DNA of 64,000 bases from Trueperaceae bacterium (GTDB lineage Bacteria > Deinococcota > Deinococci > Deinococcales > Trueperaceae). The DNA is taken from assembly GCA_965213705.1 (NCBI GenBank), contig OZ243913.1, positions 512,001 to 576,000 of the forward strand, read 5' to 3'. This document shows, piece by piece, positions 441 through 64,000 of this stretch. The notes below the pieces were generated by a model. The model was given only the letters and a program-made list of their open reading frames with translations. It did no database searches and was not told the origin of the DNA. Within the stretch, counting starts at the first letter, position 1. Each line of letters opens with the position of its first letter. The position numbers were made by a program, and so were the translations under genes.

Positions 441-634
441 TTCGTGCGGCGAGTACAACGCGTTTGGTGCGGCTCACCCTCGTCCTGGACGTGGAGACGC
501 CCGGTTGAAAGCCGCTCGACGCTCGTGTAAAAAAGTGCAAAAAGTACGCGCCAGACGTATTTTGCGCTATACTGAGCGCAGCTCGAGGCCCGGCCTGAGG
601 TTGGGGTGGCGGTAGCCGCTCCAGGCAAGGTTTC

Positions 635-1255
635 TTGACTTCGCTACGTTTGGGAGTACCGTTGTTCGACCCTATCTTTACAGCCGACAACCCCTGCACG
701 CGCGCAAGCGTGAACGCCTACTGTAGCCGCGTCAAGGCCCTGGTGACGCCGCGCCGCTTCGAGCACATCCTGCGGGTTGCTACTTTGGCCGACACGATAG
801 CGCGCGCCAACGACTTTACCCGGGGTGAAATCCGCGTGACGAACTTAGCCGCCGTACTGCACGACGCCGCCCGCGACTTGCCGGCCGAAGAGCTGTTCGA
901 ACTCGCGCCGCCCGAAACCGACCTGGAGCGCGAACACCCGCTCGCGGTTCACGGCCGGGCCGGTCGCAAGCTCGCCGAGTGCTGGGGCGTGACCGACGAG
1001 CGCGTGTTGGAAGCCGTCGAGGGCCACGTCTTCGGCGTGCCGCACGACAACCGCGTCGGCATGGCTGTTTACGTCGCCGACGTGTCCGAGCCGGGCCGCG
1101 GGGTTAACGACGACATCCGCGAACTCGCCATGACAAACCTGTTCCGCGCGTATCAGCGGGCGGTGCAGTCGAAAGTGCAGTACCTGCGCGCCAAGGGCAA
1201 AGCGGTTCACCCCGCGACGCTGCGCGTCTACCAGGAGTTGCGTGAGCTTACGTAA
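635..1255 (+). CDS. yqeK: HD-domain protein, YqeK-like symmetrical Ap4A hydrolase
   Basis: 'RRFEHILRV', 'AAVLHDAAR', 'VHGRAG', 'YVADVSEPGR'; gene neighbourhood fits; start codon uncertain. Confidence 0.8.
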   Translation: MTSLRLGVPLFDPIFTADNPCTRASVNAYCSRVKALVTPRRFEHILRVATLADTIARANDFTRGEIRVTNLAAVLHDAARDLPAEELFELAPPETDLEREHPLAVHGRAGRKLAECWGVTDERVLEAVEGHVFGVPHDNRVGMAVYVADVSEPGRGVNDDIRELAMTNLFRAYQRAVQSKVQYLRAKGKAVHPATLRVYQELRELT

Positions 1256-2582
1256 CGCTCGAGGCTTGCAAGTCCTGGGCATTCTGTTGGCGCTGGCCGG
1301 GCTTGCGGGCTACTGGCTGAACCGTGACGTTCCGGGCAAAGCCGACCTCAACCCGGAACAGTTGGAAGTGTTGGGCATCGCGCCCGAAGAAAAAAACGAG
1401 GTTTTTCACGCGAGTTTCGTCGTGGCCGGGCGTGACTATGACGCCACGATACCCGCCAGCGATTGCCGAAAAGTCAACGGACAGTGCGTACGTGACCGGA
1501 TAGGCGAGTTCCGCATCAGCAAACGCACCGACACCATCATCTACGTCAACATCATCGGCGACAAGATAACTATGATCAACATCCCGCGCGATATTTACTT
1601 GCCACACCAGCAAACGAAAATCAACGCGATGTACCTTTACCAAGGCGCGGCGGGGCTTGTCAAAGAGGTCGAAGAAATCCTCAACCTGCCCGTGGACTAC
1701 TACGCCATCATCAACATCGACATTTTCAAAGAGATGGTCGACGCGCTGGGCGGTGTCACGGTGACGATTCCCGAGCCGGGCATGTACTATACCGACGCCG
1801 CGGCGGGTTTGAACATCGACTTCAATCCGGGTCCCCGACGTTTGGACGGCGAGGACGCCGCCAAGTTCGTTCGGTTTCGCCACACCTCACGCGGCGACAT
1901 CGACCGTATCGACAACGTCAAAAAGCTCGCCTACGCCTTGCTGGCGCAGGTCAAGGCGCTCAACGTGCGCGCGGCGTTCAAGATGCCCGAGCTGTTCGAC
2001 GCCTTGTTCGGCAACGTCGAGACGAACGCCAGCCCCGCGCTTGTAAGAGAGCTGTTGCCGCGCTTGTCACATTTGCAGCTCACCGCCGCAACTCTACCGA
2101 CCTGCTGCGACCGGCGCGACCCGGTGTTCGGGGACATCTTGGAGATAGAACCGTCCGACGTCGAGGCGTTTTTGGCCGATGCTTTCGGGGGCAAGGCGCG
2201 GGTGTTCACGGCCGCCCCCGAGGCGACGTTGTTGGTAACCAACAGCAGCGGTAAAGCGGGTTTGGAAGACCTCTACAAAGCGCGACTTGTCTCTTTGGGC
2301 GTGCCCGAAGAACGCGTCATGACGCGCGTGAGCGCGCTTGACCCCACGCCGACACGGGTGCTGACGACCGCCCAGAATTGGCAAGACGCTGACTTTTACA
2401 CGAGTTTGTTGCAGACCTCGAAACAACAAGTCGACCGCTTTGCTAAACTGGAAGACCGTGAGATAGGTGTAGAACTCGTACTCGGTGAAGACGCCGCCCG
2501 GTCGGCGCTGTCAAGAGCGGGCTTGACCGAAACGCTCGACCCGCTCAGCGTGGCGGCGACCGATACAGAAAGAGGTGACTGA
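1242..2582 (+). CDS. LCP (LytR-CpsA-Psr) family protein with LytR C-terminal domain
   Basis: N-terminal TM, 'RTDTII', 'IPRDIY', 'KINAMY', 'FVRFRH...GDIDRI'. Confidence 0.9.
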   Translation: MSLRNARGLQVLGILLALAGLAGYWLNRDVPGKADLNPEQLEVLGIAPEEKNEVFHASFVVAGRDYDATIPASDCRKVNGQCVRDRIGEFRISKRTDTIIYVNIIGDKITMINIPRDIYLPHQQTKINAMYLYQGAAGLVKEVEEILNLPVDYYAIINIDIFKEMVDALGGVTVTIPEPGMYYTDAAAGLNIDFNPGPRRLDGEDAAKFVRFRHTSRGDIDRIDNVKKLAYALLAQVKALNVRAAFKMPELFDALFGNVETNASPALVRELLPRLSHLQLTAATLPTCCDRRDPVFGDILEIEPSDVEAFLADAFGGKARVFTAAPEATLLVTNSSGKAGLEDLYKARLVSLGVPEERVMTRVSALDPTPTRVLTTAQNWQDADFYTSLLQTSKQQVDRFAKLEDREIGVELVLGEDAARSALSRAGLTETLDPLSVAATDTERGD

Positions 2583-2937
2583 TATAGATACGCTCACTGT
2601 TCCCCAAGAACTCCAACTCATCGTCGACGCGCTCGACGACAAACGAGCCAAAGACATTACCGTGCTCGACCTGAGCGGCGTGTCCGAGACGCTCTCTTAC
2701 TTTGTCGTCGCCACCGCCGAGTCCACGCTGCAAATCAAAGCTTTGGAAGACGGTGTCAAAGAGCGGCTCAAGGCGAACGGTTTCACGCCCAAGGGGATAG
2801 AGGGGCCTTCGAACCGCTGGATTTTGATGGACTACGGCTATATCGTCGCTCATCTTATGAGCGCGGACGCGAGGGAGTTTTATGACCTCGAGGGACTGTG
2901 GGCCGACGCCGCACGGCTTGACGTAAGCCCCAACTAG
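2575..2937 (+). CDS. rsfS: Ribosome silencing factor RsfS
   Basis: 'ALDDKRAKDITVLDL', 'WILMDYG', 'REFYDLEGLW'. Confidence 0.95.
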   Translation: MTDIDTLTVPQELQLIVDALDDKRAKDITVLDLSGVSETLSYFVVATAESTLQIKALEDGVKERLKANGFTPKGIEGPSNRWILMDYGYIVAHLMSADAREFYDLEGLWADAARLDVSPN

Positions 2938-4312: not shown

Positions 4313-5995
4313 GTGAAAAAAGCTCTCAACGACCTGAAAAGCGACCTGAGCTTAGAAGACAGACGAGTCCGGCCTTTTCACGACAACAAAAAAGCTTGGG
4401 CTGTCAGCGCTCGAGCGCTCGAGGGTGACCGGGCGCAAGTAGCCGCAGGCGGCGGTGAAAAAGCCGTCAAACGTCAGCACGGCAAAAACCGCCTCACGGC
4501 CAGGGAACGCATTCACAAACTCGTCGACGCAGGCTCGGACTTTTTCGAACTCATGACCTTTGCAGGCTGGGACATGTACCCGTCCGAGGGCGGAGCGCCG
4601 GCGGGCGGCGTGGTTACCGGCTTGGGCAGGTTGCACGGGCGAGACTGGTTGATAGTCGCCAACGACGCAACCGTCAAGGCGGGTGCCTTTTTCCCTGTCA
4701 CCGCCAAAAAGGTCATTCGGGCGCAGACCATCGCTTTGGAAAACCGCCTACCGGTCGTCTACCTCGTCGACTCCGCCGGTGTTTACTTGCCCATGCAGGA
4801 CGAAATCTTCCCCGACCAAGACGATTTTGGACGAGTTTTTTACCTCAACGCGCGCCTGAGCGCCGCGGGTATTCCGCAGATGGCGGCGATTATGGGCAAC
4901 TGCGTCGCGGGCGGCGCGTACCTGCCGGTCATGTGCGACACGGTCGTGATGACCGAGGGCTCGGGGCTGTACTTGGCGGGGCCGGCGCTGGTCAAAGCGG
5001 CGATAGGGCAAGAGGTCAGCAGCGAGGACTTGGGCGGCGCGGCCATGCACGCCGAAGTCGCCGGGACGGTGGACTATTTCGAGCCCGACGACGAGCACGC
5101 CTTGGAACGCTTGCGCAACTTGGCCGCGACCTACGCGCCCGGTGACGTCGCGCCTTGGGCGAAAAACCGCTCGGAGCCGCGCCCACCTGCCGAGAGTGAG
5201 CAAGACCTGCTCGGCGTCGTTCCGGCCGAGGGCGGCACGCAACCCTACGACGTGCGCGAAGTTATCGCGCGGCTCGTCGACGCCTCGAAGTTCGACGAGT
5301 ATAAGGTCAAGTACGGGCAAACCCTGGTCTGCGGTACGGCGCGTCTGGGCGGGTACGCCGTCGGCATCGTCGCCAACCAAAAAAAGGTCGTCAAAAGTAG
5401 GGGGCGGCTCGAGGTGGGCGGCGTCATTTACGCCGACGCCGCCGACAAGGCGGCCCGTTTTATCCTCAACTGCAACCAAGCGGGCATCCCGATTCTGTTT
5501 TTGCACGACGTGACCGGCTTTATGGTCGGCAAAGAAAGCGAACGTGAAGGCATCATCCGCAAGGGCGCAAAGATGGTCAACGCGGTGTCGAACAGCGTCG
5601 TGCCGCGCATCAGCCTGATTATGGGCGGCAGCTACGGTGCGGGCCACTACGCCATGAGCGGCAAGGCCTACGCGCCGCGCTTTATTTTTGCCTGGCCGAG
5701 CGCGAAGTACAGCGTGATGGGCGGTCAGCAAGCGGCCAAGACGATTCTCGACATCCAGCTCGCCCAACTCAAGCGCCAGGGTGCCGAACCCGACGACGAA
5801 GCGTTGCAAGAGCTGTACGAAACGGTCAAGGCCGACTACGACAAAGCCCTCGACATTCGTTACGGTGCGGCGCGGTTGTGGGTGGACGAGCTCGTTTTGC
5901 CCCAAGAGACGCGCGCCCGGCTTATACGCGCGCTCGAGGCCTGCGCGCAAAACCCGCACACGGAACCGCTCAGGGTCGGCGTTTTTCAGGTTTAA
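4313..5995 (+). CDS. Acyl-CoA carboxylase carboxyltransferase beta subunit (methylcrotonoyl-CoA carboxylase type)
   Basis: 'ANDATVKAG', 'YLVDSAG..LP.QDEIFPD', 'GGSYGAG.YAM', 'ARLWVD'. Confidence 0.9.
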   Translation: MKKALNDLKSDLSLEDRRVRPFHDNKKAWAVSARALEGDRAQVAAGGGEKAVKRQHGKNRLTARERIHKLVDAGSDFFELMTFAGWDMYPSEGGAPAGGVVTGLGRLHGRDWLIVANDATVKAGAFFPVTAKKVIRAQTIALENRLPVVYLVDSAGVYLPMQDEIFPDQDDFGRVFYLNARLSAAGIPQMAAIMGNCVAGGAYLPVMCDTVVMTEGSGLYLAGPALVKAAIGQEVSSEDLGGAAMHAEVAGTVDYFEPDDEHALERLRNLAATYAPGDVAPWAKNRSEPRPPAESEQDLLGVVPAEGGTQPYDVREVIARLVDASKFDEYKVKYGQTLVCGTARLGGYAVGIVANQKKVVKSRGRLEVGGVIYADAADKAARFILNCNQAGIPILFLHDVTGFMVGKESEREGIIRKGAKMVNAVSNSVVPRISLIMGGSYGAGHYAMSGKAYAPRFIFAWPSAKYSVMGGQQAAKTILDIQLAQLKRQGAEPDDEALQELYETVKADYDKALDIRYGAARLWVDELVLPQETRARLIRALEACAQNPHTEPLRVGVFQV

Positions 5996-6398
5996 ACGGC
6001 GGTTGTCGGGGGCGGCCCACTTTCTTGCGAAGGTTCCCCGCGCGACGGACAACCGGTACAGACCGCCGCACACTGTGTGTCGAGAGCGAACTTGGTGACT
6101 CTCAACCCGTGAGACCATCTCTTGCTCGAGCCTTCAACATTGACCGTGTCAGAACCAAAAGTGCTACTCCGCACAAAGTCCGGTAATCCAGTACCCTTCT
6201 GGATAGACAAAAGATACCTGTTTAGAATTCACGCTTTTGTTTATAGTCGGTGGGTAGGAACGCTTGACCTGACAACTTGTGTGCATAGGTTTGCACAGTT
6301 AGATTTGTACAGTGCAGCTGTTCAGACCAAGCGGAGGCGTAACTGTTTGAACAAGCGTTGGCCTACTTTTATGTGTGGACAAGCGAAAGGAGCGGGGT

Positions 6399-6596
6399 AT
6401 GAACTGGGACACCGTCAAGGGTGATTGGAAACAGCTTTCCGGCAAAGTCAGGGAGCGGTGGGGCGAACTCACCGACGACGAAATCGAACAAGCCAGAGGC
6501 GACCGGGACCAGCTTGCAGGTAAAATACAAGAACGCTACGGGGTCACCAAAGAAGAGGCCCAAAAACAAGTTGACGAGTGGGCCAGCAAACACTGA
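6399..6596 (+). CDS. CsbD/YjbJ family stress protein
   Basis: 'MNWDTVKGDWKQLSGKVRERWGELTDD...GKIQERYG'; AAGGAG SD before ATG 6399. Confidence 0.93.
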   Translation: MNWDTVKGDWKQLSGKVRERWGELTDDEIEQARGDRDQLAGKIQERYGVTKEEAQKQVDEWASKH

Positions 6597-6676
6597 CCGG
6601 CGCGTTCGCACTGAACGTTCGCGCCAAACTACGTCGGCTTTTTGGCTCGGCACCTCTCACTTGAAAGGAAGTAGTC

Positions 6677-6922
6677 ATGAATATCATTTTGTGGATAGTT
6701 TTGGGCGCGCTGGCGGGTTGGATCGCCAGTCTCATCATGAAAACCGAACAGGGCCTGCTCGTCGACATCATCGTCGGCATCGTCGGCGCTTTTTTGGGCG
6801 GTTTTTTGTTCAACACTTTCGGGGCGGGGGGCGTGAGCGGCTTCAACCTCTACAGCATCCTGGTCGCCATCGTTGGCGCAGTCGTGCTACTCGCCATCGT
6901 CAAGGCGGTACGGCGGGCTTAG
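6677..6922 (+). CDS. GlsB/YeaQ/YmgE (transglycosylase-associated) stress membrane protein
   Basis: 'WIVLGALAGWIAS...IIVGIVGAFLGG...SILVAIVGAVVLL'. Confidence 0.93.
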   Translation: MNIILWIVLGALAGWIASLIMKTEQGLLVDIIVGIVGAFLGGFLFNTFGAGGVSGFNLYSILVAIVGAVVLLAIVKAVRRA

Positions 6923-6947
6923 CGGGACAACCGCATTCTGATTTGAG

Positions 6948-6986
6948 AAGTTAGCCGCCCCGTTGCGAGGCGGCTGACTTCCTTTT
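6948..6986 (+). terminator. Intrinsic terminator
   Basis: aagttagccgcc...ggcggctgactt stem followed by cctttt. Confidence 0.65.
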
Positions 6987-7204
6987 GTACCCTTTCCGTT
7001 TCATTCCCTCATTAAATGCGAGCAGAGCGAAAAAAATACGGACTAGCGATAAGGAAGCGAACAACTCTTTCAAGGGGAGCTGTAGTATAGGAGCGTATTA
7101 GCTCGAGCTAAAGATTCTTTGCTGCACTCAAAACGACAATCGCTTCTTAAACTTGCTACTTCCGAAGAGGATAAACAGAACCCCGTTTGTCTCGGTGAGA
7201 CCGT

Positions 7205-8350
7205 CTATCCCGAATACGGCCGGCTGAGCTTGCCCGCGACGACCTCGTGACGCGCGCCGGTCGCGCGGGGCACTGTGTTGGGTTGGCCGAACCGTGCGAA
7301 GTAGGCCATGACCGCAAACGCCAAAGCCTCACGGTCTTTGGCGTGCCAAGCTCTAGCTTCGAAGGTCGTGACGGGTATTTCCAGGCGTTCGCGCAGCATC
7401 CTCAGCAGGGTCCGGTTGAGCGCGCCGCCGCCCGCCACCAAAATATCGTCCAAACCTTTGGGCAGCACAAAGTCCCGGTAGGCCCTCGCCACCGATTCTG
7501 CGGTAAAGGCCGTCAGGGTTGCCAGGAGTGCGTGGGGCTCGAGCCCTGCCAGCAGCCCCCCGGCTTCCAGTTCGCGTAAAGAAAAAACCTCACGGCCCGT
7601 GGTTTTTGGGGGGGGCAGTTTGAAGTAGGGATGTTGCAACAGACGTTCAAGGGTAGCCTCGTCCACCTTGCCCCGCGCGGCCAGCTCGCCGCCCTCGTCA
7701 AAGCTCAGGCCGAAGTACCGCTCCGCCGCCTCGTCGACAAGACAGTTGGCCGGCCCGGTGTCGAAAGCGAACACCGCGTTCGGGTGGGCGTCGCTCGGCA
7801 GATAGGTGAGGTTGGAAATGCCGCCCAGGTTGTGAACCGCCCGCGCCGTGCCGGGTGTGGCGAACAGCTTGGCGTCGCCGAAAGCAACCAGCGGCGCGCC
7901 GCCGCCGCCCGCAGCCATGTCGGCTTGACGAAAGTCTGAAAAAACCTCGACCCTGCAACCTTCAGCCACGAGAGACGCTTCGCCGAGTTGCAAGGTGCTG
8001 GGCGTGCGCCAGCCCTTTTTCGCGTCAAGGCGCGGGATGTGATAAACGGTTTGCCCGGACAACGCGACGAGGTCGACGGGGTGCGAGGTTTGCAGGTGCT
8101 GGACCACCTCTTTGTAAACGTGGCCGACCTCGGCGTGAAGTTGGGTGAGTAAAACCACGTCGGACGTTTCGGGCCGAATCGCCCGGTGAAGCCGCTCCCG
8201 CAAGTCGGGCGCGTAGTCGCGGCTGTGGCGGGCCAAAACGTGCCACTCGAGCCTTTGCGCAGTCTGCTCGAGCCGCACCAGCACCGCGTCGACCCCGTCG
8301 AGCGAAGTGCCGGACATGAGGCCGAGGACGTCGAGGGGTCTAAAGTTCAC
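7205..8350 (-). CDS. anmK: Anhydro-N-acetylmuramic acid kinase
   Basis: 'GLMSGTSLDGVD', 'GQTVYH', 'DFRQADMAAGG.GAPL', 'NLGGISN', 'FDTGPAN', 'KTTGRE'. Confidence 0.95.
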   Translation of the reverse strand: MNFRPLDVLGLMSGTSLDGVDAVLVRLEQTAQRLEWHVLARHSRDYAPDLRERLHRAIRPETSDVVLLTQLHAEVGHVYKEVVQHLQTSHPVDLVALSGQTVYHIPRLDAKKGWRTPSTLQLGEASLVAEGCRVEVFSDFRQADMAAGGGGAPLVAFGDAKLFATPGTARAVHNLGGISNLTYLPSDAHPNAVFAFDTGPANCLVDEAAERYFGLSFDEGGELAARGKVDEATLERLLQHPYFKLPPPKTTGREVFSLRELEAGGLLAGLEPHALLATLTAFTAESVARAYRDFVLPKGLDDILVAGGGALNRTLLRMLRERLEIPVTTFEARAWHAKDREALAFAVMAYFARFGQPNTVPRATGARHEVVAGKLSRPYSG

Positions 8351-9411
8351 CGCGTCTCTCCGAGTGCTTGCACGATTTCGTCGTGAAAAGCCCGCCTTAG
8401 CGCGTGAACGCCCTCACCGCCGAAGCGCGTCGGGTGGACGCGGTTGGTGAGGAGCACGGCGAACCAACCCTGCTCGGGGTCCAGCCACAGACTTGTGCCG
8501 GTAAAACCCGTGTGCCCAAAGGCCGCTTTGCTTGCCAAGCCGCCAGCGCTCGAGCCCGCCCCCGCCAGCTGCCAGCCGAGACCGCGCCGCGTTTTTCCGT
8601 CACCGACCTTCTCTTCAATTGCCTCCCGCAGCAGAGCCTCGTCACCAAGTCTCGAGTCCCAATTCAGCCACGCTTGCGCGTACCGCGCCAGGTCACCAGC
8701 AGTCCCGAACAGCCCGGCGTGCCCGGCGACGTGGTTCATCACAAAGGCGTTCTCGTCGTGGACGATACCCTCCAACACTTGCCCACGCCAACCGCAATCC
8801 TCAGTCGCGGCGACGTTGTCGGGGGAAACGGGGCCGTAACGAGTGTCGTTCATCCCGAGCGGCTCGAAGATATATTTTTTAGCAAAAGCGTCCTGCCGCA
8901 AGCCGGAGACGCGTTCGACAATCGCGCCCAACAGGATAAAGCCGAGGTCGCTGTAGACGAACACCCCGGGCGCGTGCTCTATGCCGGTCTGGAGCACGTT
9001 GGCGACAGCGGTGCGGCGCTCGCTCACGGTGGCGAACAGCGGTTTCCAAGCGGGTAAGCCGGAGGTGTGCGTGAGCAACTGCGTTAGGGTCGTTTCGGCG
9101 AGCGACGGTGTCTGAAACCAGCCCGCGTTGCTGAAAAACTTGCTCACTTGGTCGTCTAAGTTCAACACCCCCTCACTGACCAGCCGGAGGACGCTCGGCA
9201 AGGTCGCGACGACCTTCGTCAGCGAGGCGAGGTCGTAGCGGGTGTCAGCCGAAACCGCCGCGCCGCCGTACCGCTTTACGCCGAGAGCGGCGACCTTCTC
9301 CGAGCGGTCGCGCGTTCCCGCGACCACGACCAGGCCGGGGGTCACGCGGGGCGCCGCTTCGGTACTCAGTGCCTGTTTCAAAACAGTTCGGGCTGCCGCA
9401 AAAGCCGTCAT
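8347..9411 (-). CDS. Beta-lactamase-family serine hydrolase (AmiE-like muropeptide amidase candidate)
   Basis: SxxK 'DLASLTK', 'LLTHTSG', 'YSDLGF', 'GHTGFTG', 'LLTNRVHP'; translationally coupled to anmK. Confidence 0.85.
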   Translation of the reverse strand: MTAFAAARTVLKQALSTEAAPRVTPGLVVVAGTRDRSEKVAALGVKRYGGAAVSADTRYDLASLTKVVATLPSVLRLVSEGVLNLDDQVSKFFSNAGWFQTPSLAETTLTQLLTHTSGLPAWKPLFATVSERRTAVANVLQTGIEHAPGVFVYSDLGFILLGAIVERVSGLRQDAFAKKYIFEPLGMNDTRYGPVSPDNVAATEDCGWRGQVLEGIVHDENAFVMNHVAGHAGLFGTAGDLARYAQAWLNWDSRLGDEALLREAIEEKVGDGKTRRGLGWQLAGAGSSAGGLASKAAFGHTGFTGTSLWLDPEQGWFAVLLTNRVHPTRFGGEGVHALRRAFHDEIVQALGETR

Positions 9412-9486
9412 GGGGCAAACCTAACACGTTTGATTTTAATGGTCTAGCAGTGGTACAGTCCTAACCATCGTGCCAGTGAGAGCGAG

Positions 9487-10233
9487 ATGGACTTAACGGC
9501 GTTGACCATCGACAAGGCCTTGCCCACGCCCGCCTACTTGCAGCTCAAAGACAAGTTGCTTCAGGCCTTCGAGGCGGGGCAGTTGCGGCCCGGCACGGCG
9601 CTGCCCTCGGAGCGTGACTTGGCCGGAGCGGTCAGTTTGTCACGGATGACGGTGCGGCGAGCCTTTGAAGAACTCGTAGCTGCGAACCTCGTCGAACAGC
9701 GGCAGGGCTCAGGCACCTACGTCTTGCCGAAACGCTTGGAGCAGACCGTCGACCGGGTGCTGGGGTTTACCGACGAGGCGCGCACCCTGGGTTTCGAAGC
9801 CGGAAGCCGTATTTTGAGCGCCGAGCACGTTGCCGCAGACCCCGCCGCCGCCGCGGCGTTGCAGGTTGCGGCGAACCTGTCCGTCTTGCGGGTGCGGCGT
9901 TTGCGCACCGCCGACGGCGCGCCGCTGGCCTTGCAAACCGCCCAACTCGCGCCGCGCTTTAGCCGACTGTCGCTCCACCGCCTCGAGAGTTCGGGCAGCC
10001 TTTACAAAACCATCCAGGAGCAGTACGGCGTCACACCGCACGCCGCGCGGCAGACCGTACGGGCGCGGTTGCCGACCCGCACCGAGCAAGACGTGCTGAA
10101 CTTGCACGGCGGCAGCCCGGTCATGGCGATGGAGCGCGTCACTTTCGGCGTCGACGGTGTCCCGTTCGAATTTGTACGCAGCGTCTACCGCGGTGACCGC
10201 TACCAAATGGCCCTGGAGCTGCGCGCTCCGTAA
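9487..10233 (+). CDS. GntR/HutC family regulator with UTRA domain (NagR-like)
   Basis: 'LPSERDLA...SRMTVRRA...GSGTYV'; C-terminal 'YRGDRY'. Confidence 0.92.
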   Translation: MDLTALTIDKALPTPAYLQLKDKLLQAFEAGQLRPGTALPSERDLAGAVSLSRMTVRRAFEELVAANLVEQRQGSGTYVLPKRLEQTVDRVLGFTDEARTLGFEAGSRILSAEHVAADPAAAAALQVAANLSVLRVRRLRTADGAPLALQTAQLAPRFSRLSLHRLESSGSLYKTIQEQYGVTPHAARQTVRARLPTRTEQDVLNLHGGSPVMAMERVTFGVDGVPFEFVRSVYRGDRYQMALELRAP

Positions 10234-10313
10234 CGGGCCGAGAGCGCTTTCGACCCGCTCCGCCTTGCGAAACGAACACTAACTCCTCAACACCCAAAAG
10301 AACGGAAACCGCC

Positions 10314-11180
10314 ATGACCGAACAGAGTGACGACCGGTATCAAGACCTCGACACTTGGCCCTTCGAGCGGACGCTGAGCGCCCTCGTCGAGAGCAACCGC
10401 CGGGCCGTCGCGGCTGTGGCGGCGGCTTTGCCCGCGCTCACGGCGGCGGCGGAGGGCGTGGCTCGAGCCTTGCTAAAGGGCGGCAGGCTCGTCTACGTCG
10501 GCGCGGGTACGTCGGGGCGGTTAGCCCTGCAAGACGCCGCGGAACTGCCGCCGACCTTCGGGTTCGACCGCACCGTGGTCCTGATGGCGGGCGGGGACAG
10601 CGCGGCGGGCCGAGCGCGTGAGGGGGCCGAAGACGACGAGGCGGCGGCGCGCGCGGCGGTCGCCCAGGCCGGGGTCGGCGCGAACGACGCGGTCATCGGT
10701 TTGGCGGCGAGCGGCCGGACACCCTACACCGTCGCGAGCGTTGAGGAGAGCCGGGCCCGGGGCGCATTCACCGTCGGGGTGTCCAACAACCCGGACACGC
10801 CGCTCTTGCGTGTGGCCGAAGTCGGGATTTTCCTCGAGACCGGCCCCGAGGTGCTGGCGGGTTCGACCCGCCTGGCGGCGGGAACCTCGCAGAAAATCGT
10901 GCTCAACGCCCTGTCCACGGCGGTACTGGTGCGTTCCGGCGGCGCTTACGGCAACCTGATGGTGGGGATGAAGCCGCTGAACGACAAACTGCGGCGGCGC
11001 GCCGTCGACATCGTGCGGCAAGCGGCCGAAGTGTCCGAAGCTGAGGCCGAAACAGCTTTGACCGCGAGCGGCGGCCTCATGCGTGAAGCAGTCGTGATGC
11101 TGAAAGCGGGCGTGGGTTTGGACGAGGCGAGGGCAAAGCTCGAGGCCGGTGGCGGGCGGGTGCGGGACGCACTGAGGTAA
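10314..11180 (+). CDS. murQ: N-acetylmuramic acid 6-phosphate etherase
   Basis: 'YVGAGTSGRL..DAAELPPTFG', 'EGAED', 'AASGRTP', 'GPEVLAGSTRL', 'GNLMV'. Confidence 0.93.
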   Translation: MTEQSDDRYQDLDTWPFERTLSALVESNRRAVAAVAAALPALTAAAEGVARALLKGGRLVYVGAGTSGRLALQDAAELPPTFGFDRTVVLMAGGDSAAGRAREGAEDDEAAARAAVAQAGVGANDAVIGLAASGRTPYTVASVEESRARGAFTVGVSNNPDTPLLRVAEVGIFLETGPEVLAGSTRLAAGTSQKIVLNALSTAVLVRSGGAYGNLMVGMKPLNDKLRRRAVDIVRQAAEVSEAEAETALTASGGLMREAVVMLKAGVGLDEARAKLEAGGGRVRDALR

Positions 11181-11283
11181 GAAGTTTGAAGCGTGCTTCA
11201 TTCAGGAACTCATCTGCTGCTCGCGTCGCCGGGCTGAGCTTCAGGCCCTCGAGCTACGGAAGTACCTTGCTAAAATAGTGTTT

Positions 11284-12090
11284 ATGCGCCTCGAGGCTTA
11301 CCTGACGCGCGTGGACTACGAGGGGTCTTTAGCGCCGACCCTGGAAACCCTCACCGCTCTCCACCGCGCCCACTTGACGAGCATCTCTTACGAAAACTTG
11401 GACATCCACCTCGGTCGCCCGTTGGTTTTGAAACCGGAGCGGATTTTCGAGAAACTCGTGTTGGAGCGGCGCGGCGGCTGGTGCTACGAGATGAACGCTT
11501 TGTTTGCGCGCGTGCTCCGCGAACTCGGTTTCGAGGTCACGCTTTTGGGCGGCGCGGTAAACCGGGCGCGGCTTGGCACAAGGGCCGACCTTAATCACCT
11601 CGCCTTACTCGTCTCGTTGGAGCAGCCTTACCTCGCCGACGTGGGTTTCGGAGACGGTTTTCTCGAGCCCTTGCCCCTGCAAGAAGGGCGCTACCGACAA
11701 GGCTTTTTGGAGTTCGGTTTAAGCCGAGTGGGAGAGGTTTGGACTTTTCACAACCACGCGTACGGCGCAGCTCCCGGCTTCGAGTTCAACCTCGTTCCGC
11801 GGCGCTTAAAGGAGTTTGAGGGCCAGTGCCACAGGTTGCAGACCGCGCCCGAGTCGGGCTTTGTGCAGGTCACCGTGTGCCAGCGTTTTAAGGAAAAGAG
11901 TCTGCTGAGTTTGCGCGGTGCGACGTTGAAGACCGTCACGCGGCGCGGCATAGAAACGCGGGTCATCGACACTCGAGACGAGTTCGTAAAGGTTTTGTGC
12001 GAAGATTTCGGGCTGTGTTTTCCCGAGGTGGCTGACTTGTGGCCGCAAGTGTGGGCGAGCCATCTCGCCTGGCAGGCGGCCGGCGCATAA
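11284..12090 (+). CDS. Arylamine N-acetyltransferase
   Basis: 'YENLDI', 'RRGGWCYEMN', 'NHLAL', 'ADVGFG' (Cys-His-Asp triad); TAAAAT 7 nt before ATG 11284. Confidence 0.93.
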   Translation: MRLEAYLTRVDYEGSLAPTLETLTALHRAHLTSISYENLDIHLGRPLVLKPERIFEKLVLERRGGWCYEMNALFARVLRELGFEVTLLGGAVNRARLGTRADLNHLALLVSLEQPYLADVGFGDGFLEPLPLQEGRYRQGFLEFGLSRVGEVWTFHNHAYGAAPGFEFNLVPRRLKEFEGQCHRLQTAPESGFVQVTVCQRFKEKSLLSLRGATLKTVTRRGIETRVIDTRDEFVKVLCEDFGLCFPEVADLWPQVWASHLAWQAAGA

Positions 12091-12126
12091 CCTCTCCTCG
12101 CGCCGTCGTCTGCTAGATTGTAAACC

Positions 12127-12720
12127 GTGAGCCAAGCTGTGAGCAGCCCCCGCGAACCGGTGCCGAGTGACAAGATGCGCGCTCGAGCCGCGGCCGCCAT
12201 CCTTTCGCTGTTGGAGCGCGACGACGTGCTCGTTTTAGACACCGAAACGACCGGCATGGGCAAGACGGCCGAAGTCATCGAGGTGTCGGTCGTCAACACG
12301 CGCGGCGACGTGCTCCTCGACACGCTCGTCAAACCCAAAGTGCCGAGGATGAACCGCTTCGCGCAGCGCGTCCACGGGATTTCGCTGGGCATGTTGGCGG
12401 ATGCGCCGAGTTGGCCCGAGGTGTTGCCCGAGTTAAGTGAGATAGCCGACCGCCGCACGGTGCTCGCCTGGAACGCGCCCTTCGACGCGGGCATGTTGGC
12501 GCAGAACTCGCTCGCCTGGGACTTGCCGCACCCGAAGTGGCTGTTCGTGTGCGCCATGCGCCTGTACGCCAGAGGGCGCGGCATCAAGATACGAGGCCTG
12601 CACAAGTGCGTGGTGGACGAGAATCTACAACATCTTTTAGAAACTCATCAAAGTCACCGCGCGCTTGCGGATGTTGTGTTTACGCTCGAGGTTTTGCGCT
12701 CGAGCGTGAGAAACCGGTAG
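12127..12720 (+). CDS. DEDDh 3'-5' exonuclease (DnaQ-like)
   Basis: 'LDTETTG', 'AWNAPFD', 'HRALAD'. Confidence 0.9.
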   Translation: MSQAVSSPREPVPSDKMRARAAAAILSLLERDDVLVLDTETTGMGKTAEVIEVSVVNTRGDVLLDTLVKPKVPRMNRFAQRVHGISLGMLADAPSWPEVLPELSEIADRRTVLAWNAPFDAGMLAQNSLAWDLPHPKWLFVCAMRLYARGRGIKIRGLHKCVVDENLQHLLETHQSHRALADVVFTLEVLRSSVRNR

Positions 12721-12737
12721 CCCTGTAGCCTTACCCT

Positions 12738-12766
12738 TTGACAATTCCTTCACAAGCATCTATACT
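12738..12766 (+). promoter_or_regulatory. Near-consensus sigma70 promoter of the DEAD-box helicase gene
   Basis: TTGACA(12738)-N17-TATACT(12761). Confidence 0.85.
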
Positions 12767-12932
12767 CGGTGAGTTTGCGTAGACTTGCTACGCCTTGTGT
12801 ACCCCTTAAATATTTGAGCTGTAACGAGTTCTGAGTACGGGTTTGAGCGAGGAAGCAGGCTACTCACTGCAGGTGAGTCAGGCGCCCGCGCGTGCCGAAT
12901 AAAAGACTTGCCTCACCCGGAAAGGAACAGTT

Positions 12933-15456: not shown

Positions 15457-15462
15457 CTCGGT

Positions 15463-51995: not shown

Positions 51996-52849
51996 GAGCG
52001 TGTTATGAACTAGCCGGAAGAGTTAAAAAAGGGGCTAAGCGTTTAAGCATGAGCATAGAGAAAGCTAAGAAATGCAGCCCAGCAAGGGTTTCAGGCAGTC
52101 GTTCATAGTCACGGGCTAAGCGCCTGAGTCGGGATGTCCAGGCAAAGGAACGCTCTACGACCCAGCGTCTGGGTAGCAAAACGAAGCCTTTCTTAGCTTC
52201 TTCGTGTTTAACAACGAAGAGCCGAATGCCTTGGCTTTTAGCCGCCTCGGCTGCGTCGTCACCTGTGTAGCCCTGGTCTACAAACGCAACCTCGACGGAT
52301 TCTCCAGTTATGGTTTGAACTTGCTCGGCAAGCGCTTCAACCTGATGGCGTTCTTGTTCGTTTGCAGGTGTAACGACAAGGGCTAAGAGTAGACCCAAGG
52401 TATCGACTGCCAGATGGACTTTAGAGCCTTTCTTACGCTTGTGTCCGTCATAGCCCGCACGTTCGCCACTCTCAGGCGTACTTTGTAAGGTGCGTCCATC
52501 AAACACCGTCGCTGTTGGGTTTTCTCCTCGTCCTTTCAGCCGTCTCAGCAGGCTTCGTAGGTCGTGGGTCATCTCCTCGAACACGCCTGCTTTTAACCAC
52601 CTTTGGCTTTGCTGATATACCGCTTCCCAAGGTGGGAAGTCACCAGGTAAATAGCGCCAAGGTGAGCCTGAGCGAACCATCCATCTCAAAGCATCAAACA
52701 CCTCTCGTAGGTCATAACTTCGTTGTGGGGCGTCTTCTCTGATTAAGCTCAAGTACGGTGCTACAAAAGCCCATTCTTCATCGCCGACATCACTCGGATA
52801 ACCTTTCCTTGTCATTCTTTAGTTTAGCGATTGAGTTCATAACACCCTC
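51996..52849. mobile_element. Complete IS5-family insertion sequence (854 bp)
   Basis: 16-bp terminal inverted repeats gagcgtgttatgaact / agttcataacaccctc (1 mismatch), each flanked by TA; lower GC than flanks. Confidence 0.92.
52003..52815 (-). CDS. IS5 family transposase (single ORF, IS1031-like)
   Basis: 'YPSD...EEW', '[10 protein letters not shown]', '[18 protein letters not shown]', 'DQGY', '[19 protein letters not shown]'. Confidence 0.95.
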
Positions 52850-58132: not shown

Positions 58133-58209
58133 ATGCCATCGTTCGCGTGAGAGAGACTATTTGGGTAAGTGAGTGCGCTAAACTGGCGAGAATTAGCGGA
58201 GGAGAACCT

Positions 58210-59187
58210 ATGTCAACAAGCCCTGTCAGCCAGTTTTTAAAACGCCACTATCGCCACTTCAACGCCGCCGCCCTCATTGACGCCGCCGCAGCGTACACGA
58301 CTCACTTGGACAACGGCGGCAAAATGATGGTCACGCTCGCCGGGGCCATGAGCACTGCCGAACTCGGGCTGTCGCTGGCCGAGATGATTCGCCGGGACAA
58401 GGTTCACATCATCTCTTGCACCGGGGCGAACCTCGAGGAGGACATCTTCAACCTCATCGCGCACGACTATTACGAGCGCCTGCCGAACTGGCGCGACCTA
58501 ACGCCGCAGGAGGAGCAGGGTTTGCTCGAGCGCCACATGAACCGCGTCACCGACACCACCATCCCCGAAGAAGAAGCGATGCGCCGCCTCGAGAAAGCCC
58601 TCGTGGACGAATGGGCGAAGGCTGATAAAGCAGGAGAGAGCTACTTCCCGCACGAGTTTCTTTACAAACTCATCCGCTCGGGCGCGCTAAAAGAACACTA
58701 CCAAATTGACCCCCAAGACTCTTGGATGGTCGCCGCGTGTGAAAAAAACCTGCCCATCGTCGTGCCCGGTTGGGAGGACTCGACCACCGGCAACATGTAC
58801 GCCTCGCACTGCATCACGGGTGAAGTCAAAAACGTCCACACCGTCAAAACGGGCATCCAGTACATGATTGAACTCGCCGACTGGTACACGCAGACCGCCG
58901 GGGAGAGCAGCGTCGGCTTTTTTCAAATCGGCGGCGGCATCGCCGGGGACTTCCCGATTTGCGTCGTGCCGATGCTCCATCAGGACTTGCAGCGTGACAA
59001 CGTGCCGATGTGGGGCTACTTTTGCCAAATCAGCGATTCGACCACGAGCTACGGCAGTTACTCGGGCGCGGTGCCGAACGAGAAAATCACCTGGGGCAAG
59101 CTGAATGTGGACACGCCGAAGTACATCATCGAGTCGGACGCGACGATTGTTGCGCCGCTGATGTTTGCACTGATTTTGGGGGAGTAA
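58210..59187 (+). CDS. Deoxyhypusine synthase-like protein (probable homospermidine synthase, SpeY-type)
   Basis: 'HFNA', 'LAGAMSTAELG', 'CTGANLEED', 'IGGG', 'GSYSGA.PNEKITWGK', 'SDATI'. Confidence 0.88.
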   Translation: MSTSPVSQFLKRHYRHFNAAALIDAAAAYTTHLDNGGKMMVTLAGAMSTAELGLSLAEMIRRDKVHIISCTGANLEEDIFNLIAHDYYERLPNWRDLTPQEEQGLLERHMNRVTDTTIPEEEAMRRLEKALVDEWAKADKAGESYFPHEFLYKLIRSGALKEHYQIDPQDSWMVAACEKNLPIVVPGWEDSTTGNMYASHCITGEVKNVHTVKTGIQYMIELADWYTQTAGESSVGFFQIGGGIAGDFPICVVPMLHQDLQRDNVPMWGYFCQISDSTTSYGSYSGAVPNEKITWGKLNVDTPKYIIESDATIVAPLMFALILGE

Positions 59188-59308: not shown

Positions 59309-60106
59309 ATGTCCTATCAAGCCACCGTGATCAACATCATGATTGCCTCACCAGGTGATGTTACAGATGAAAGACAAAAGATTCGTGATGTTGTTTTTGA
59401 GTGGAATGTCACACACGCTGAGGACAAAAAGTTGGTACTCATGCCAGTCGGATGGGATTCGCATTCTACTCCTGAAATGGGTAGAAGACCTCAAGCGATT
59501 ATTAACGAACAAGTATTGAATAGGTGTGACTTGTTAGTTGCGGTTTTTTGGACGCGACTTGGTAGTCCTACAGGTGAATCAACCAGTGGTACTGTTGAGG
59601 AAATTGACAGACACCTAGAAGCGGGAAAACCGGCAATGCTTTATTTCTCAAACACCCCTGTCCGACTTGATAGTGTGGTGGATGAACAGTATCATGCTCT
59701 GAAAGCATTTCGTAAAAATTGTGAAAAACGCGGTCTTATTGAAACCTATGGATCCATTCAAGAATTTCATGACAAATTTACTCGACAACTTACACAAAAA
59801 GTTAATCGTATGTTTGCTGGACCTGTTGAAATACCCAAACTATCGGATGAAGCTCGAACATTACTACTGGAGGCGTCTCAGGACAATGGAATCATTTTCT
59901 GTCTCCTTACAATGGATGGTTTGGATATTCAGGCAAATGGAAAGCAGATGACTGAGGCAGGCAACGCACGTTCCGAGGCAAAGTGGAAGTCTGCTCTCGA
60001 AAATCTACTTCTGTTAGGGCTTATCGAATCGAAGGATAGTATGGAAGAGGTTTTTGGACTGACTTATGAGGGCTTCGAAGTAGCGGATAGTTTTGCTGAG
60101 TTATGA
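59309..60106 (+). CDS. DUF4062-domain protein with a C-terminal winged-helix-like region; low GC
   Basis: 'IMIASPGDV..ER', 'RPQ.IIN', 'CDLLVAVFWTRLGSPT...SGT.EEI'; AT-rich codons. Confidence 0.8.
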   Translation: MSYQATVINIMIASPGDVTDERQKIRDVVFEWNVTHAEDKKLVLMPVGWDSHSTPEMGRRPQAIINEQVLNRCDLLVAVFWTRLGSPTGESTSGTVEEIDRHLEAGKPAMLYFSNTPVRLDSVVDEQYHALKAFRKNCEKRGLIETYGSIQEFHDKFTRQLTQKVNRMFAGPVEIPKLSDEARTLLLEASQDNGIIFCLLTMDGLDIQANGKQMTEAGNARSEAKWKSALENLLLLGLIESKDSMEEVFGLTYEGFEVADSFAEL

Positions 60107-62307: not shown

Positions 62308-63101
62308 AGCGGGCGCGGTTCATATCAAAAGGGAGAGAACTCGAGGGCGTGCTGCAAGACGGCCGCCTCATCGACCACGCGGGCGAGGCGCACGACCCCG
62401 AGGCGGTGACGTGGCGCTTGCCGGTCACGCCGGGCAAGGTCATCGCGCTGGCGCTGAACTACCGCGACCATGCGGCTGAACTCGAGCTTGCCCAGCCCGA
62501 AGACCCCGCGCTGTTCTGGAAACCCAACACCTCGCTGCTGCCGCACCGGGGCACCGTCATCTACCCGCAGGGCGCACAGTTCATGCACTACGAGGTCGAA
62601 CTCGCGGTCATCATCGGCCGCAACGCGCGGCGGGTGAAAGCGAAGGACGCCTACGACTACGTCGGCGGCTACAGCGTCGCTAATGACCTCGTCGTGCGCG
62701 ACTACGTGACGAACACCTACCGCCCGCCGATTCGCGGCAAGGGGTGGGACACCTTCGGGCCGCTCGGGCCTTACTACGTGAGCACGGACGAAGTGACAGA
62801 CCCCGACAACCTCACCCTGCGCGCTTTTGTGAACGACGAACTGCGCCAGGAGGGCAACACGAGCGACATGATTTACAAGATTCCCGAACTGCTCGAGTAC
62901 ATCAGCCGCTTTATGACCCTCGAGAAAGACGACGTGCTCCTCACCGGCACGCCCAAGGGGATTTCGCACGTGCATCCGGGCGACACCATGCGCTTGGAGG
63001 TCGAAGGTTTGGGCGAACTCGTCAACGATGTGATGATGGAAACCGAGGATGCCGAGCCGCTACTCGGGCGCGAAGGGAATCGACAAGAGGTGAAAGCATG
63101 A
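62304..63101 (+). CDS. Fumarylacetoacetate hydrolase family isomerase/decarboxylase (HpaG-like)
   Basis: 'ALNY..H', 'HYEVELAV', 'AND', 'KGWDTFGPLGP', 'TGTPKG'; GTG 62304 overlaps the upstream stop. Confidence 0.88.
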   Translation: MKRARFISKGRELEGVLQDGRLIDHAGEAHDPEAVTWRLPVTPGKVIALALNYRDHAAELELAQPEDPALFWKPNTSLLPHRGTVIYPQGAQFMHYEVELAVIIGRNARRVKAKDAYDYVGGYSVANDLVVRDYVTNTYRPPIRGKGWDTFGPLGPYYVSTDEVTDPDNLTLRAFVNDELRQEGNTSDMIYKIPELLEYISRFMTLEKDDVLLTGTPKGISHVHPGDTMRLEVEGLGELVNDVMMETEDAEPLLGREGNRQEVKA

Positions 63102-64000
63102 GTGTCGTGACGATAACGAAAGCCGGAATTGCGCAGGAGAGGGCTCGAGGCTACCTGGACAAACTTGCTGAAAAAGGCATCCGCCACCTCATCGACGGCG
63201 AGCACGTCGGCTCGGTCTCGGGGGAGACGTTCGACAACGCGACGCCACTCGACGATTCGACGCTGTGCAAGGTCGCCTCCGGTGGCGCTGAAGATGTCGA
63301 TAAAGCTGCGCAGGCGGCCCGCGACGCCTTCCCCGCCTGGCGCGACCTGCCCGCGACAGAGCGCCGCGAACTGCTCCACCGCGTCGCCGACCTTATAGAA
63401 GCACACGCCGAAGAAATCGCCCTTTTAGAAGTCCTCGACACCGGCCAGCCGATTCGTTTTATGAGCAAGGCAGCCTTGCGCGGCGCGCAGAACTTCCGCT
63501 TTTTCGCCGACAAGTGCGAAGAGGCGCGCAACGGCCTGAGCCTGCCGACCGAGGAGTTTTTGAACTACACGCTGCGCCAACCCATCGGGCCGGTCGGGAT
63601 TATCACGCCCTGGAACACGCCCTTTATGCTCTCGACCTGGAAAATTGCCCCAGCGCTCGCCGCGGGCTGCACCGTCGTCCACAAACCCGCCGAGTTCAGC
63701 CCGGTCACGGCGTTGCGGCTGCACGAAATCATGCTCGAGGCCGGGATTCCCGCAGGCGTCACCAACCTCGTCAACGGCTACGGCGAAACGGCGGGCAAGG
63801 CCCTTACCGAGCACCCCGACATCAAAGCGGTCGCTTTTGTCGGCGAAAGCCTCACGGGTTCGCACATCATGGCGCAGGGTGCGCCGACGCTGAAGCGGGT
63901 TCACTTCGAACTCGGTGGCAAGAATCCGGTGGTGGTGTTCGAGGATGCGGACTTGGAGCGCGCCCTCGACGCGGTCGTTTTCATGATTTACAGCCTCAAC
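63098..64000 (+). CDS. hpaE: 5-carboxymethyl-2-hydroxymuconate semialdehyde dehydrogenase (3' truncated by window edge)
   Basis: translated by hand from ATG 63098: 'DTGQPIRFM', 'ITPWNTPFMLSTWKIAPALA', 'FELGGKNP', 'IYSLN'. Confidence 0.9.
   Translation, partial: MSVVTITKAGIAQERARGYLDKLAEKGIRHLIDGEHVGSVSGETFDNATPLDDSTLCKVASGGAEDVDKAAQAARDAFPAWRDLPATERRELLHRVADLIEAHAEEIALLEVLDTGQPIRFMSKAALRGAQNFRFFADKCEEARNGLSLPTEEFLNYTLRQPIGPVGIITPWNTPFMLSTWKIAPALAAGCTVVHKPAEFSPVTALRLHEIMLEAGIPAGVTNLVNGYGETAGKALTEHPDIKAVAFVGESLTGSHIMAQGAPTLKRVHFELGGKNPVVVFEDADLERALDAVVFMIYSLN

Follow-up and report, generated by a model that had tools for sequence, protein, structure and literature searches.

Why a single six-base palindrome should recur at intervals averaging some 480 bases, both within genes and between them, is the question raised by this stretch of a Trueperaceae genome (64,000 nucleotides, analysed as a whole and referred to here as the window). 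The first-pass annotation had estimated 135–140 CTCGAG sites, with about 20 expected by chance; the exact count is 138, and the computed zero-order expectation is 21.1 (Table 1). Five sites that it had placed between genes (582, 7102, 22812, 36252 and 52861) are all real and lie outside called genes, and its view that the word extends to several frames, including one with a CGA codon, and is not confined to Leu-Glu pairs, was borne out by 14 NCT-CGA-G and 17 NNC-TCG-AG sites. Rfam gave no match within the window.

Table 1. CTCGAG copies, examples of their contexts, and two control elements in the window.
Feature	Position	Strand	Remarks
Dispersed CTCGAG copies	582..63739		138 copies, 46 of them GCTCGAGC; flanks mildly biased towards a preceding G and a following C
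Intergenic CTCGAG, example	7102..7107		21 of 138 outside called genes (intergenic or uncalled)
In-frame Leu-Glu CTC-GAG, example	2887..2892	+	86 of 138
NCT-CGA-G with rare Arg codon CGA, example	4410..4415	+	14 of 138
NNC-TCG-AG, example	8549..8554	-	17 of 138
IS5-type element (DUF4096 + DDE_Tnp_1)	51996..52849	-	854 bp; no CTCGAG; control
DUF4062 gene	59309..60106	+	798 bp; 42.6% GC; no CTCGAG; control

The whole genome (G000) contains 8,868 copies (2.09/kb), present in all 425 bins at 8–39 per 10 kb. CTCGAG is the top hexamer genome-wide, with an observed/expected ratio (O/E) of 3.69 under a second-order Markov model, compared to 1.67 for the next-ranked palindrome, and it ranks highest again under a maximal-order model (O/E 1.47, z=52). 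Synonymous shuffles left an excess of 2.57, 18.5 and 3.74 in the three reading frames and 4.9 in spacers, and conditioning codon choice on the next base gave 2.2, 51 and 4.4 by frame. The signal remained after these controls, and the refutation set out in the first-pass annotation (loss of the enrichment once dicodon usage and TCGA frequency are controlled for) did not come about. Genome-wide, arginine in NCT-CGA-G contexts is encoded by CGA in 72% of cases, versus approximately 5% elsewhere. CGATCG has an O/E of 0.03, and GATC is avoided in G000 (O/E 0.10). Among aligned CTCGAG sites, 1,189 of 1,616 were kept in genome G001, and in spacers compared between sister species CTCGAG was kept at 78%, versus 48% for control words. 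Over-represented whatever the frame, in spacers as well, and conserved from one species to the next, CTCGAG is a highly iterated palindrome. Our literature searches found no description of its over-abundance.

HIP1 (GCGATCGC), with alternate HIPs, is the cyanobacterial example of such a word (Elhai 2015, PMC4390886; Xu et al. 2018, PMC5861425; PMC13756078); it has no copy in the window. As HIP1 is described in the available text of these sources, CTCGAG resembles it in being a short palindrome that ranks first among words and occurs in every frame and in spacers, with conserved positions, in its density (2,088/Mb, within the HIP1 range of 300–2,700/Mb), in having a core with preferred flanks and orphan methyltransferases, and in the lack of the enzyme from the densest genomes, an observation that Elhai made for S. 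elongatus (PMC4390886). It differs from HIP1 in phylum (Deinococcota, not cyanobacteria) and sequence, in a lower fold-enrichment (3.7-fold, second-order), in showing, by our test, no periodicity of the 10–90 kb kind seen in part of the cyanobacteria, in having three interchangeable enzyme families, and in its mark, which in relatives was measured as m6A and not the m5C of HIP1, G000 being without a C5 enzyme. The reason for HIP1's existence has been in question for three decades, and the same phenomenon in a second phylum, where many gains, losses and flank changes can be compared, bears on it. Thermus is, in addition, genetically tractable and naturally competent.

Distribution across the phylum was quantified by R, the CTCGAG count divided by the mean of CTCGAC on both strands, which is blind to enrichment as an 8-mer (G018) and inflated where TCGA is avoided (groups g21 and g45); with G254 left out of every count, 95 of 260 genomes were enriched. 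The motif is thus spread over much of the phylum, and its description as lineage-specific does not hold. All 96 Deinococcus-like genomes (g19) were depleted (R 0.02–0.52), all 22 genomes of group g24 were enriched (R 3.8–19), and the densest were those of f5 (seven genomes, 4.6–6.5/kb) and G241 (7.0/kb). Flanks differ by lineage: GCTCGAGC is preferred in G000, while in all 30 Thermus-like genomes (g21) CCTCGAGG makes up 73–92% of CTCGAG, and CTCGAC has only 5–70 copies.

Three unrelated families of solitary adenine methyltransferase (A, B and C) replace one another across these genomes. G000 carries a family C enzyme with intact motifs beside dnaG (genome positions 1,135,936-1,137,615), which bears PF22837 and is 23–26% identical to families A and B. 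The first-pass annotation had suggested seeking an orphan XhoI- or TaqI-like methyltransferase; matches to A (M.TaqI-like) and B (XhoI-like) in G000 were only weak ones to other methyltransferases. Of families B and C, every g24 genome has one and only one (B in 5, C in 17); in G211 an integrase/IS insert carrying a family B gene interrupts the family C gene. From this exchange, CTCGAG is the predicted target of the G000 enzyme, for which Pfam and PADLOC name no target. The family C gene of G001, at the same dnaG locus, is 42% identical, and its neighbours are 94–96% identical. Six plasmid stretches and eight loci were covered by an avoidance test, and plasmids carrying distant homologues showed no avoidance of CTCGAG (53 seen versus 67 expected). 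No nuclease ORF lies beside the family C gene and no TaqI nuclease was found in G000; a search for the XhoI nuclease family had no match anywhere, controls included. CTCGAG is enriched in G000, not avoided as a type II restriction site for XhoI or TaqI would be. In three relatives, Marinithermus hydrothermalis, Meiothermus ruber and M. chliarophilus, active orphan CTCG(m6A)G enzymes have been measured (PMC4752239 table S3); the same paper lists no CTCGAG enzyme for M. silvanus. These enzymes (M.Mhy14884I, M.Mru1279II and M.Mch9957IV) act on the word studied here and come from the same phylum; they are set beside the G000 enzyme irrespective of family, and none has a listed cognate nuclease; the available sections of PMC4752239 make no mention of a genome-wide CTCGAG excess in their hosts. 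In Nocardia, an orphan enzyme for the same hexamer is a cytosine methyltransferase accompanied by Vsr, and its sites cluster near dnaA (PMC4752239), whereas CTCGAG here is spread evenly.

Both mutS and mutL are intact in G000; a nicking motif (DQHAAHER, CPHGRP) is present in MutL itself. No MutH tied to CTCGAG was found, the only MutH-like gene lying in a separate methyltransferase cassette. Among 42 tested genomes of family f1, 15 of 18 with mutL were enriched, compared to none of 24 without it. Subdivided, R>=2 occurred in 14 of 16 genomes with both mutL and a methyltransferase and in one of two with mutL only, and enrichment was absent from all nine with a methyltransferase only and all 15 with neither. 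G018, of the same family, is enriched as an 8-mer (81% GCTCGAGC). This restriction of over-abundance to sampled family members in which mutL was found suggests that methylation-guided repair likely writes CTCGAG. Exceptions occur in both directions, as G240 and G222 have mutL and are unenriched, and mutL was not found in two enriched genomes, G241 (R 86; 91% complete, in 640 contigs) and G203 (R 3.05; 91%). Independent losses are few, approximately 2–5, comprising 1–3 in f1 (counted on a tree of ComEC alone, whose deep support is 13–73) plus g20 and G203. The pattern is no proof that repair writes the word, because mutation rates rise when repair is lost, and a motif maintained only weakly would decay in any case.

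We consider it quite possible, if a little short of probable, that a methylation- or sequence-directed bias in mismatch repair builds up and keeps CTCGAG, as in the MutS/MutL ratchet that Elhai proposed for HIP1 (PMC4390886). The solitary methyltransferase would mark CTCGAG, MutS and MutL would resolve mismatches by restoring the sequence of whichever strand reads CTCGAG (the direction of this bias is one that we infer), and a putative factor would couple the mark to MutL and read 8–10 bases. Protection of approximately 9,000 sites against XhoI- or TaqI-type nucleases from outside would be a further effect of the enzyme, and CTCGAG-rich genomes would be expected to resist XhoI and TaqI. CTCGAG itself need not serve any function. 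In E. coli, Dam and MutH carry out methyl-directed mismatch repair, with an orphan m6A enzyme acting on a palindrome and coupled to MutS/MutL. G000 likewise has a solitary m6A enzyme, predicted to act on a palindrome, together with MutS and MutL, their coupling being our proposal, but it avoids GATC and its MutL has a nicking motif of its own.

The ratchet is supported by the enrichment of f1 genomes having both mutL and methyltransferase and never of those without mutL, by the g19 genomes, all depleted and without a strong match to A or B (one weak match, 28%, to C), the three tested having mutL, by the consistent pairing of enrichment with B or C in g24, and by the active orphan enzymes of three relatives (PMC4752239); the first-pass likening to HIP1, with its link to methylation and repair, is strengthened by the same enzymes, by the solitary m6A methyltransferase of G000 and by the co-occurrence with mutL. 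The ratchet is further supported by the divergence of Leu-Glu codon pairs, for which uniform selection on the site is rejected: 17 CTCGAG/CTCGAA pairs were observed and 146 expected, and the AIC was 12102, compared to 11675–11872 for position-specific models. Depletion of CTCGAA (to 0.23) and TTCGAG (to 0.29) is confined to contexts in which the substitution is synonymous. The low site density of the best codon-adapted genes and the near-random spread, both given below, count in its favour as well. Gain and loss rates were model-dependent (gain x10 and loss x0.6 in one model, gain x1.4 and loss x0.03 in the other), and both models under-predict multi-step changes. The ratchet is weakened because a 6-base methyltransferase does not explain 8-base flanks, and because no match to any of the three families was found in the densest genomes (f5, seven genomes; G241; likewise G191, the four g41 genomes and G013). 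The lack of a listed enzyme for M. silvanus and the plasmid result also count against it. Searches for an enzyme shared by the densest lineages (PF07669, PF02384, PF00145, PF01555 and PF02086; 5–33 genomes each) returned type I, IIG and mobile systems and no candidate common to them; a C5 enzyme occurs in both G022 and G241 (59%), next to a nuclease-like gene in the latter, but G258 has nothing closely similar.

Extended to all Deinococcota, the proposal is a more doubtful one: an adenine mark may direct MutL-dependent repair to write CTCGAG strongly enough to reshape codon choice, with three unrelated methyltransferase families alternating and a putative 8-base reader setting the flanks (GCTCGAGC, CCTCGAGG). 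If true, this would constitute a MutH-independent route of methyl-directed repair, showing how methylation can serve mismatch repair in MutH-less bacteria, and the ratchet model of highly iterated palindromes would gain its first loss-of-function evidence from nature. We found no contrast between mutL presence and absence reported for HIP1 in the available sources; the contrast described here makes Elhai's model directly accessible to experiment.

An unlikely but serious alternative is that CTCGAG is the binding site of a putative protein for chromosome organisation, replication or recombination, kept by selection. Methyltransferases would then be later recruits that shield the many thousands of copies, and mutL-less lineages would lose enrichment only because mutation outruns weak selection. 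The graded preference over 8–10 bases favours this explanation, with C as the next base in 54% of spacer copies against a background of 26%, and conservation rises from 63% to 72% and 82% with zero, one and two matching flanks. The lineage-specific flanks, the dense lineages without a recognisable methyltransferase and the swapping of roles among unrelated enzymes also fit. However, uniform selection was rejected for Leu-Glu pairs, no reader protein was identified, local clusters did not exceed 7 per 500 bp, and the sites show no spacer preference (2.6, 2.6 and 2.9/kb in divergent, tandem and convergent spacers) and no periodicity beyond control words (strongest Fourier peak 7.9, versus about 6.7 by chance and 6.1–8.5 for controls, by a method different from that of Xu et al.).

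Less probable still is biased uptake, in which CTCGAG, possibly methylated, favours uptake or integration of DNA during natural transformation and so rises in frequency, a mechanism also put forward for HIP1. Uptake sequences show enriched near-matches, and DUS and USS are non-palindromic 9–10-mers concentrated in terminators. One-off neighbours of CTCGAG in spacers are depleted or neutral (0.63–1.11), and convergent spacers hold no excess (2.9/kb versus 2.6/kb). G000 has ComEC, as do 75 of 80 genomes, but depleted and unenriched ones have it equally, so the uptake route suggested at first pass gained no support. Methylation-dependent gains in transformation have been cited for HIP1 (PMC13756078).

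Very-short-patch repair, in which a C5 methyltransferase and Vsr would turn TTCGAG into CTCGAG by correcting T:G at the first C, is most improbable. TTCGAG and CTCGAA are the most depleted neighbours, and CTCGAG enzymes accompany Vsr in Nocardia and Rhodopseudomonas (PMC4752239 table S3), but PF00145 (C5 methyltransferase) and PF03852 had no match in G000 (98% complete), and the 51-fold NCT-CGA-G excess needs changes at positions 2 and 5 that Vsr would not supply. That the excess merely reflects codon pairs, amino-acid use or TCGA content is ruled out for practical purposes, for although 4,982 of the 8,868 sites (56%) are Leu-Glu and that dipeptide is 1.25-fold over-represented, the excess persists through every control, in all three frames and spacers, GAG is the Glu codon after CTC in 94% of cases versus 44–61% after six other codons, and spacer copies rank 4 of 713 hexamers in conservation. 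An AddAB/Chi role was also considered; PF12705 matched in five of five genomes tried and is not discriminating, because depleted G027 was among them. One spacer compared with phages had no match.

The first-pass annotation had also described CTCGAG as missing from foreign DNA and potentially useful in dating acquisitions. Alien-looking genes do have half the usual density, yet five times that expected by chance (0.98/kb in 62 low-GC uncalled ORFs, versus 0.19), and codon-atypical called genes are not depleted (1.75–2.75/kb), so that CTCGAG is a poor clock for gene acquisition. Its absence from the IS5-type element, which has seven identical copies in the genome, and from the DUF4062 gene is real but no evidence on this point, because each expects only about 1.7 sites (probability of none, 0.17 and 0.19). 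The lowest density occurs in the best codon-adapted genes (1.53/kb), and placement is almost random (variance/mean 1.04 at 2 kb), as expected from a weak, genome-wide pressure.

CTCGAG occurs 138 times in the window, 46 of them as GCTCGAGC, against 21 expected from base composition, in good agreement with the first-pass annotation, which had estimated about 135–140 sites against about 20. By our own gene calls, 86 sites read CTC-GAG, 14 NCT-CGA-G and 17 NNC-TCG-AG, and 21 lie outside called genes. The Markov comparison of palindromes suggested in that annotation, run across the source genome G000 (4.25 Mb, 60.9% GC, single contig, 98% complete), ranked CTCGAG as the top hexamer, with 8,868 sites (2.09/kb) and an observed/expected ratio (O/E) of 3.69 under a second-order model and 1.47 (z 52) under the maximal-order model. 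Other palindromes are mostly avoided (O/E 0.10 for GATC, 0.04 for GAGCTC, 0.12 for GGCGCC). Spacing is near random (variance/mean 1.04 at 2 kb), with no periodicity above control words in G000 and no bias toward divergent, tandem or convergent spacers, and the hexamer is absent from all 43 tRNAs and the 16S gene. There is a soft flank preference, the base after a spacer CTCGAG being C in 54% of cases vs 26% in the background. GC skew in this genome is very weak (cumulative range -1,974 to +5,836 over 4.2 Mb), and Leu TTG use, at 22%, is high for 61% GC.

A codon effect can be excluded as the cause by the excess in three frames, in spacers and after control for the next base. Synonymous shuffles of 3,465 genes gave O/E values of 2.57, 18.5 and 3.74 across the frames, confirming the earlier view that Leu-Glu pairs do not explain all sites, and conditioning codon choice on the next base gave 2.2, 51 and 4.4. 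Density in 2,442 short spacers was 2.69/kb (O/E 4.9). GAG makes up 94% of Glu codons after CTC vs 44–61% after six other codons, and CGA 72% of Arg codons in NCT-Arg-G contexts vs about 5% in most others.

Foreign DNA is poorer in CTCGAG sites, yet not free of them, so that the earlier statement that the motif is missing from such DNA holds for its density only. The IS5 element (seven identical copies in G000) and the DUF4062 gene do contain zero sites, as first noted, but each expects only about 1.7 (P0 0.17 and 0.19). In 62 low-GC ORFs that the native gene model had not called, density was 0.98/kb where chance would give 0.19, and windows below 48% GC had 1.02/kb. Codon-atypical called genes had 1.75–2.75/kb and the best-adapted genes 1.53/kb.

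Across the phylum, we scored 260 of 261 genomes (G254 left out) by R, the CTCGAG count divided by the mean of CTCGAC on both strands, and found enrichment (R at least 2) in 95. By family-level group, these were 21/72 in f1, 61/61 in f4, 4/13 in f3, 7/7 in f5 (4.6–6.5 sites/kb) and 2/107 in f2, the last being G241 (7.0/kb) and G191. We infer that f1 is Trueperaceae and that the genus-level groups g21, g24 and g19 are Thermus (from TaqI genes), Meiothermus (from names) and Deinococcus. Matches to a helicase encoded in the window carry mainly Trueperaceae names, followed by Oceanithermus and Meiothermus, with one match at 90% bearing a Chloroflexota label. CTCGAG is depleted in all 96 g19 genomes (R 0.02–0.52), the opposite of their relatives. 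In all 30 g21 genomes CCTCGAGG accounts for 73–92% of CTCGAG sites and CTCGAC is nearly gone; R is inflated there because TCGA is avoided, surviving almost only as CCTCGAGG (e.g. L034, L148, L149). The GCTCGAGC share of CTCGAG reaches 81% in G018 and 69% in G013.

The survey of methyltransferases in G000 and relatives (METHYLTRANSFERASES) found three unrelated solitary adenine methyltransferase families, A, B and C, at least one of which is present in 79 of the 95 enriched vs 21 of the 165 other genomes. The XhoI/PaeR7I- or TaqI-like enzyme anticipated in the first pass exists in relatives (families B and A), but G000 itself carries family C, a 559-aa gamma-class m6A methyltransferase (PF02384, PF07669, PF22837); neither a C5 methyltransferase nor Vsr was found in G000. 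The gene lies tail-to-tail with dnaG, as in G001 (a same-genus relative), G196, G221 and G207, and a divergent subclade occupies the usual locus in G001 and G079. CTCGAG is the presumed target of the G000 enzyme; a plasmid site-avoidance test for this target was negative. Family A, M.TaqI-like by PDB match, occurs in all 30 g21 genomes, both g45 genomes and G024; its gene had the same locus in three g21 genomes inspected, and only 8 of the 30 have a TaqI nuclease gene. Family B, which we take to resemble M.XhoI/M.PaeR7I, was found in 15 genomes. All 22 g24 genomes carry exactly one of families B and C (B in 5, C in 17). In G211 the family C gene is split by an 8-kb insert which, judging by its genes, appears to be a replacement of C by B caught in the act. 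According to the accessible part of PMC4752239, Marinithermus hydrothermalis, Meiothermus ruber and M. chliarophilus have active CTCG(m6A)G enzymes for which no cognate nuclease is given, and no such enzyme is listed for M. silvanus. A 2026 preprint (10.64898/2026.06.24.734251), in its accessible portion, reports CTCGAG and TCGA methylation common to one host-phage group and a fixed motif set in Deinococcota.

G000 also carries mutS and a 540-aa mutL with nicking motifs. A PF01119 search of 80 chosen genomes found mutL in 18 of the 42 f1 genomes tested, 15 of them enriched (R for G001 being taken from a 1.2 Mb sample), whereas none of the 24 without mutL was (R 0.70–1.80), including nine that retain family C. 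Five of these nine were included in the family C tree, on long branches, as are G002, G017 and G221, which have mutL. All three g20 genomes (f3) lack mutL and have R of 1.35–1.76; mutL was found in 12/12 f4 and 6/6 f5 genomes tested. It is also present in 11 of 13 f2 genomes, mostly unenriched, and is therefore not sufficient. Counter-cases are G241 and G203, enriched with mutL not found (both 91% complete), and G240 and G222, unenriched with mutL. ComEC, used as a control, was found in 75 of the same 80 genomes. The f1 genomes without mutL fall into three groups, lacking settled mutual relations, in a ComEC tree built from 41 genomes, and the contrast thus rests on about 2–5 independent losses. 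Several mutL-less f1 and g20 genomes are assembled in one or two contigs, and many have long ComEC branches.

Our leading but tentative explanation for the excess is a repair ratchet, in which methylation would mark the CTCGAG site and MutS/MutL repair would settle mismatches in favor of the CTCGAG strand. In f1 the ratchet is consistent with three features: a requirement for both genes (methyltransferase and mutL), a weak, even pressure that gives way to codon selection, and the failure of plain site selection. It leaves unexplained the 8-base flanks and the densest lineages, in which no enzyme was found.

An alignment with G001 (778 kb at 87% identity, from 1.2 Mb fetched in 60 stretches) showed 1,189 of 1,616 aligned CTCGAG sites to be retained, the share being 63%, 72% and 82% with zero, one and two matching flanks. 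Spacer copies of CTCGAG were retained at 78% and those of other hexamers at 48%, which places CTCGAG fourth among 713. Such conservation might reflect selection for a protein-binding site, with the methyltransferases being protective, but we consider this less likely than the ratchet: for Leu-Glu pairs in which either genome reads CTCGAG (704 identical; 65, 114 and 36 with one, two and three differences), uniform site selection predicts 146 CTCGAG/CTCGAA pairs and 17 were observed, and this model was worse than position-specific models by more than 200 AIC units. Where change is silent, CTCGAA and TTCGAG stand at 0.23 and 0.29 of expectation, other neighbors at 0.41–5.2. Rates vary with the model (gain x10 and loss x0.6 vs gain x1.4 and loss x0.03), and neither fits fully. 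Uptake-biased drive, for which the accessible part of PMC13756078 makes a case with respect to HIP1, with Thermus and Deinococcus unmentioned there, seems improbable.

A repair ratchet has also been proposed for HIP1, the cyanobacterial highly iterated palindrome. As first proposed, CTCGAG works like HIP1, but it is not HIP1. The available text of Elhai 2015 (PMC4390886) puts forward a methyl-dependent MutS/MutL ratchet for HIP1, whose density it gives as 300–2,700 per Mb, and contains no mention of CTCGAG, Meiothermus or Deinococcus; it also reports the enzyme missing from the densest HIP1 genomes, a likeness to CTCGAG. According to the part of PMC5861425 available, HIP1 is periodic and under selection; CTCGAG in G000 is not periodic beyond control words. 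TCGA is unmentioned in the available part of PMC3235269, and our literature search, which mostly did not cover subscription journals, found no description of over-abundant CTCGAG or CCTCGAGG in Deinococcota.

Outside Deinococcota (L275–L284), a nuclease-like ORF of 250–280 aa with no Pfam or PADLOC match comes after the family C gene and probably represents an unnamed type II restriction family. The Dam-like/MutH-like cassette of G000 fits the strong avoidance of GATC (O/E 0.10). The window also holds an Agd3-type deacetylase, a family first described in fungi.

Coordinates and content of individual loci
Location	Positions	Feature	Details
Window	20451-22556	Agd3-type deacetylase	CBM87 domain (PF25115, PF25116)
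Window	51996-52849	IS5	
Window	58147-59187	Deoxyhypusine synthase family gene	PF01916; adjoins glyoxalase gene and low-GC DUF4062 gene
Window	59309-60106	DUF4062 gene	
G211:C4:626000-645999 (L131)	5409-15567	Family C gene split by 8-kb insert	Insert with integrase-like genes, transposases, intact family B (XhoI-like) methyltransferase
G000:C1 (L002, L285), outside the window	4,058,495-4,061,800	Cassette	Dam-like D12 methyltransferase, MutH/Sau3AI-like nuclease (PF02976, E 1e-4), split N4/N6 methyltransferase
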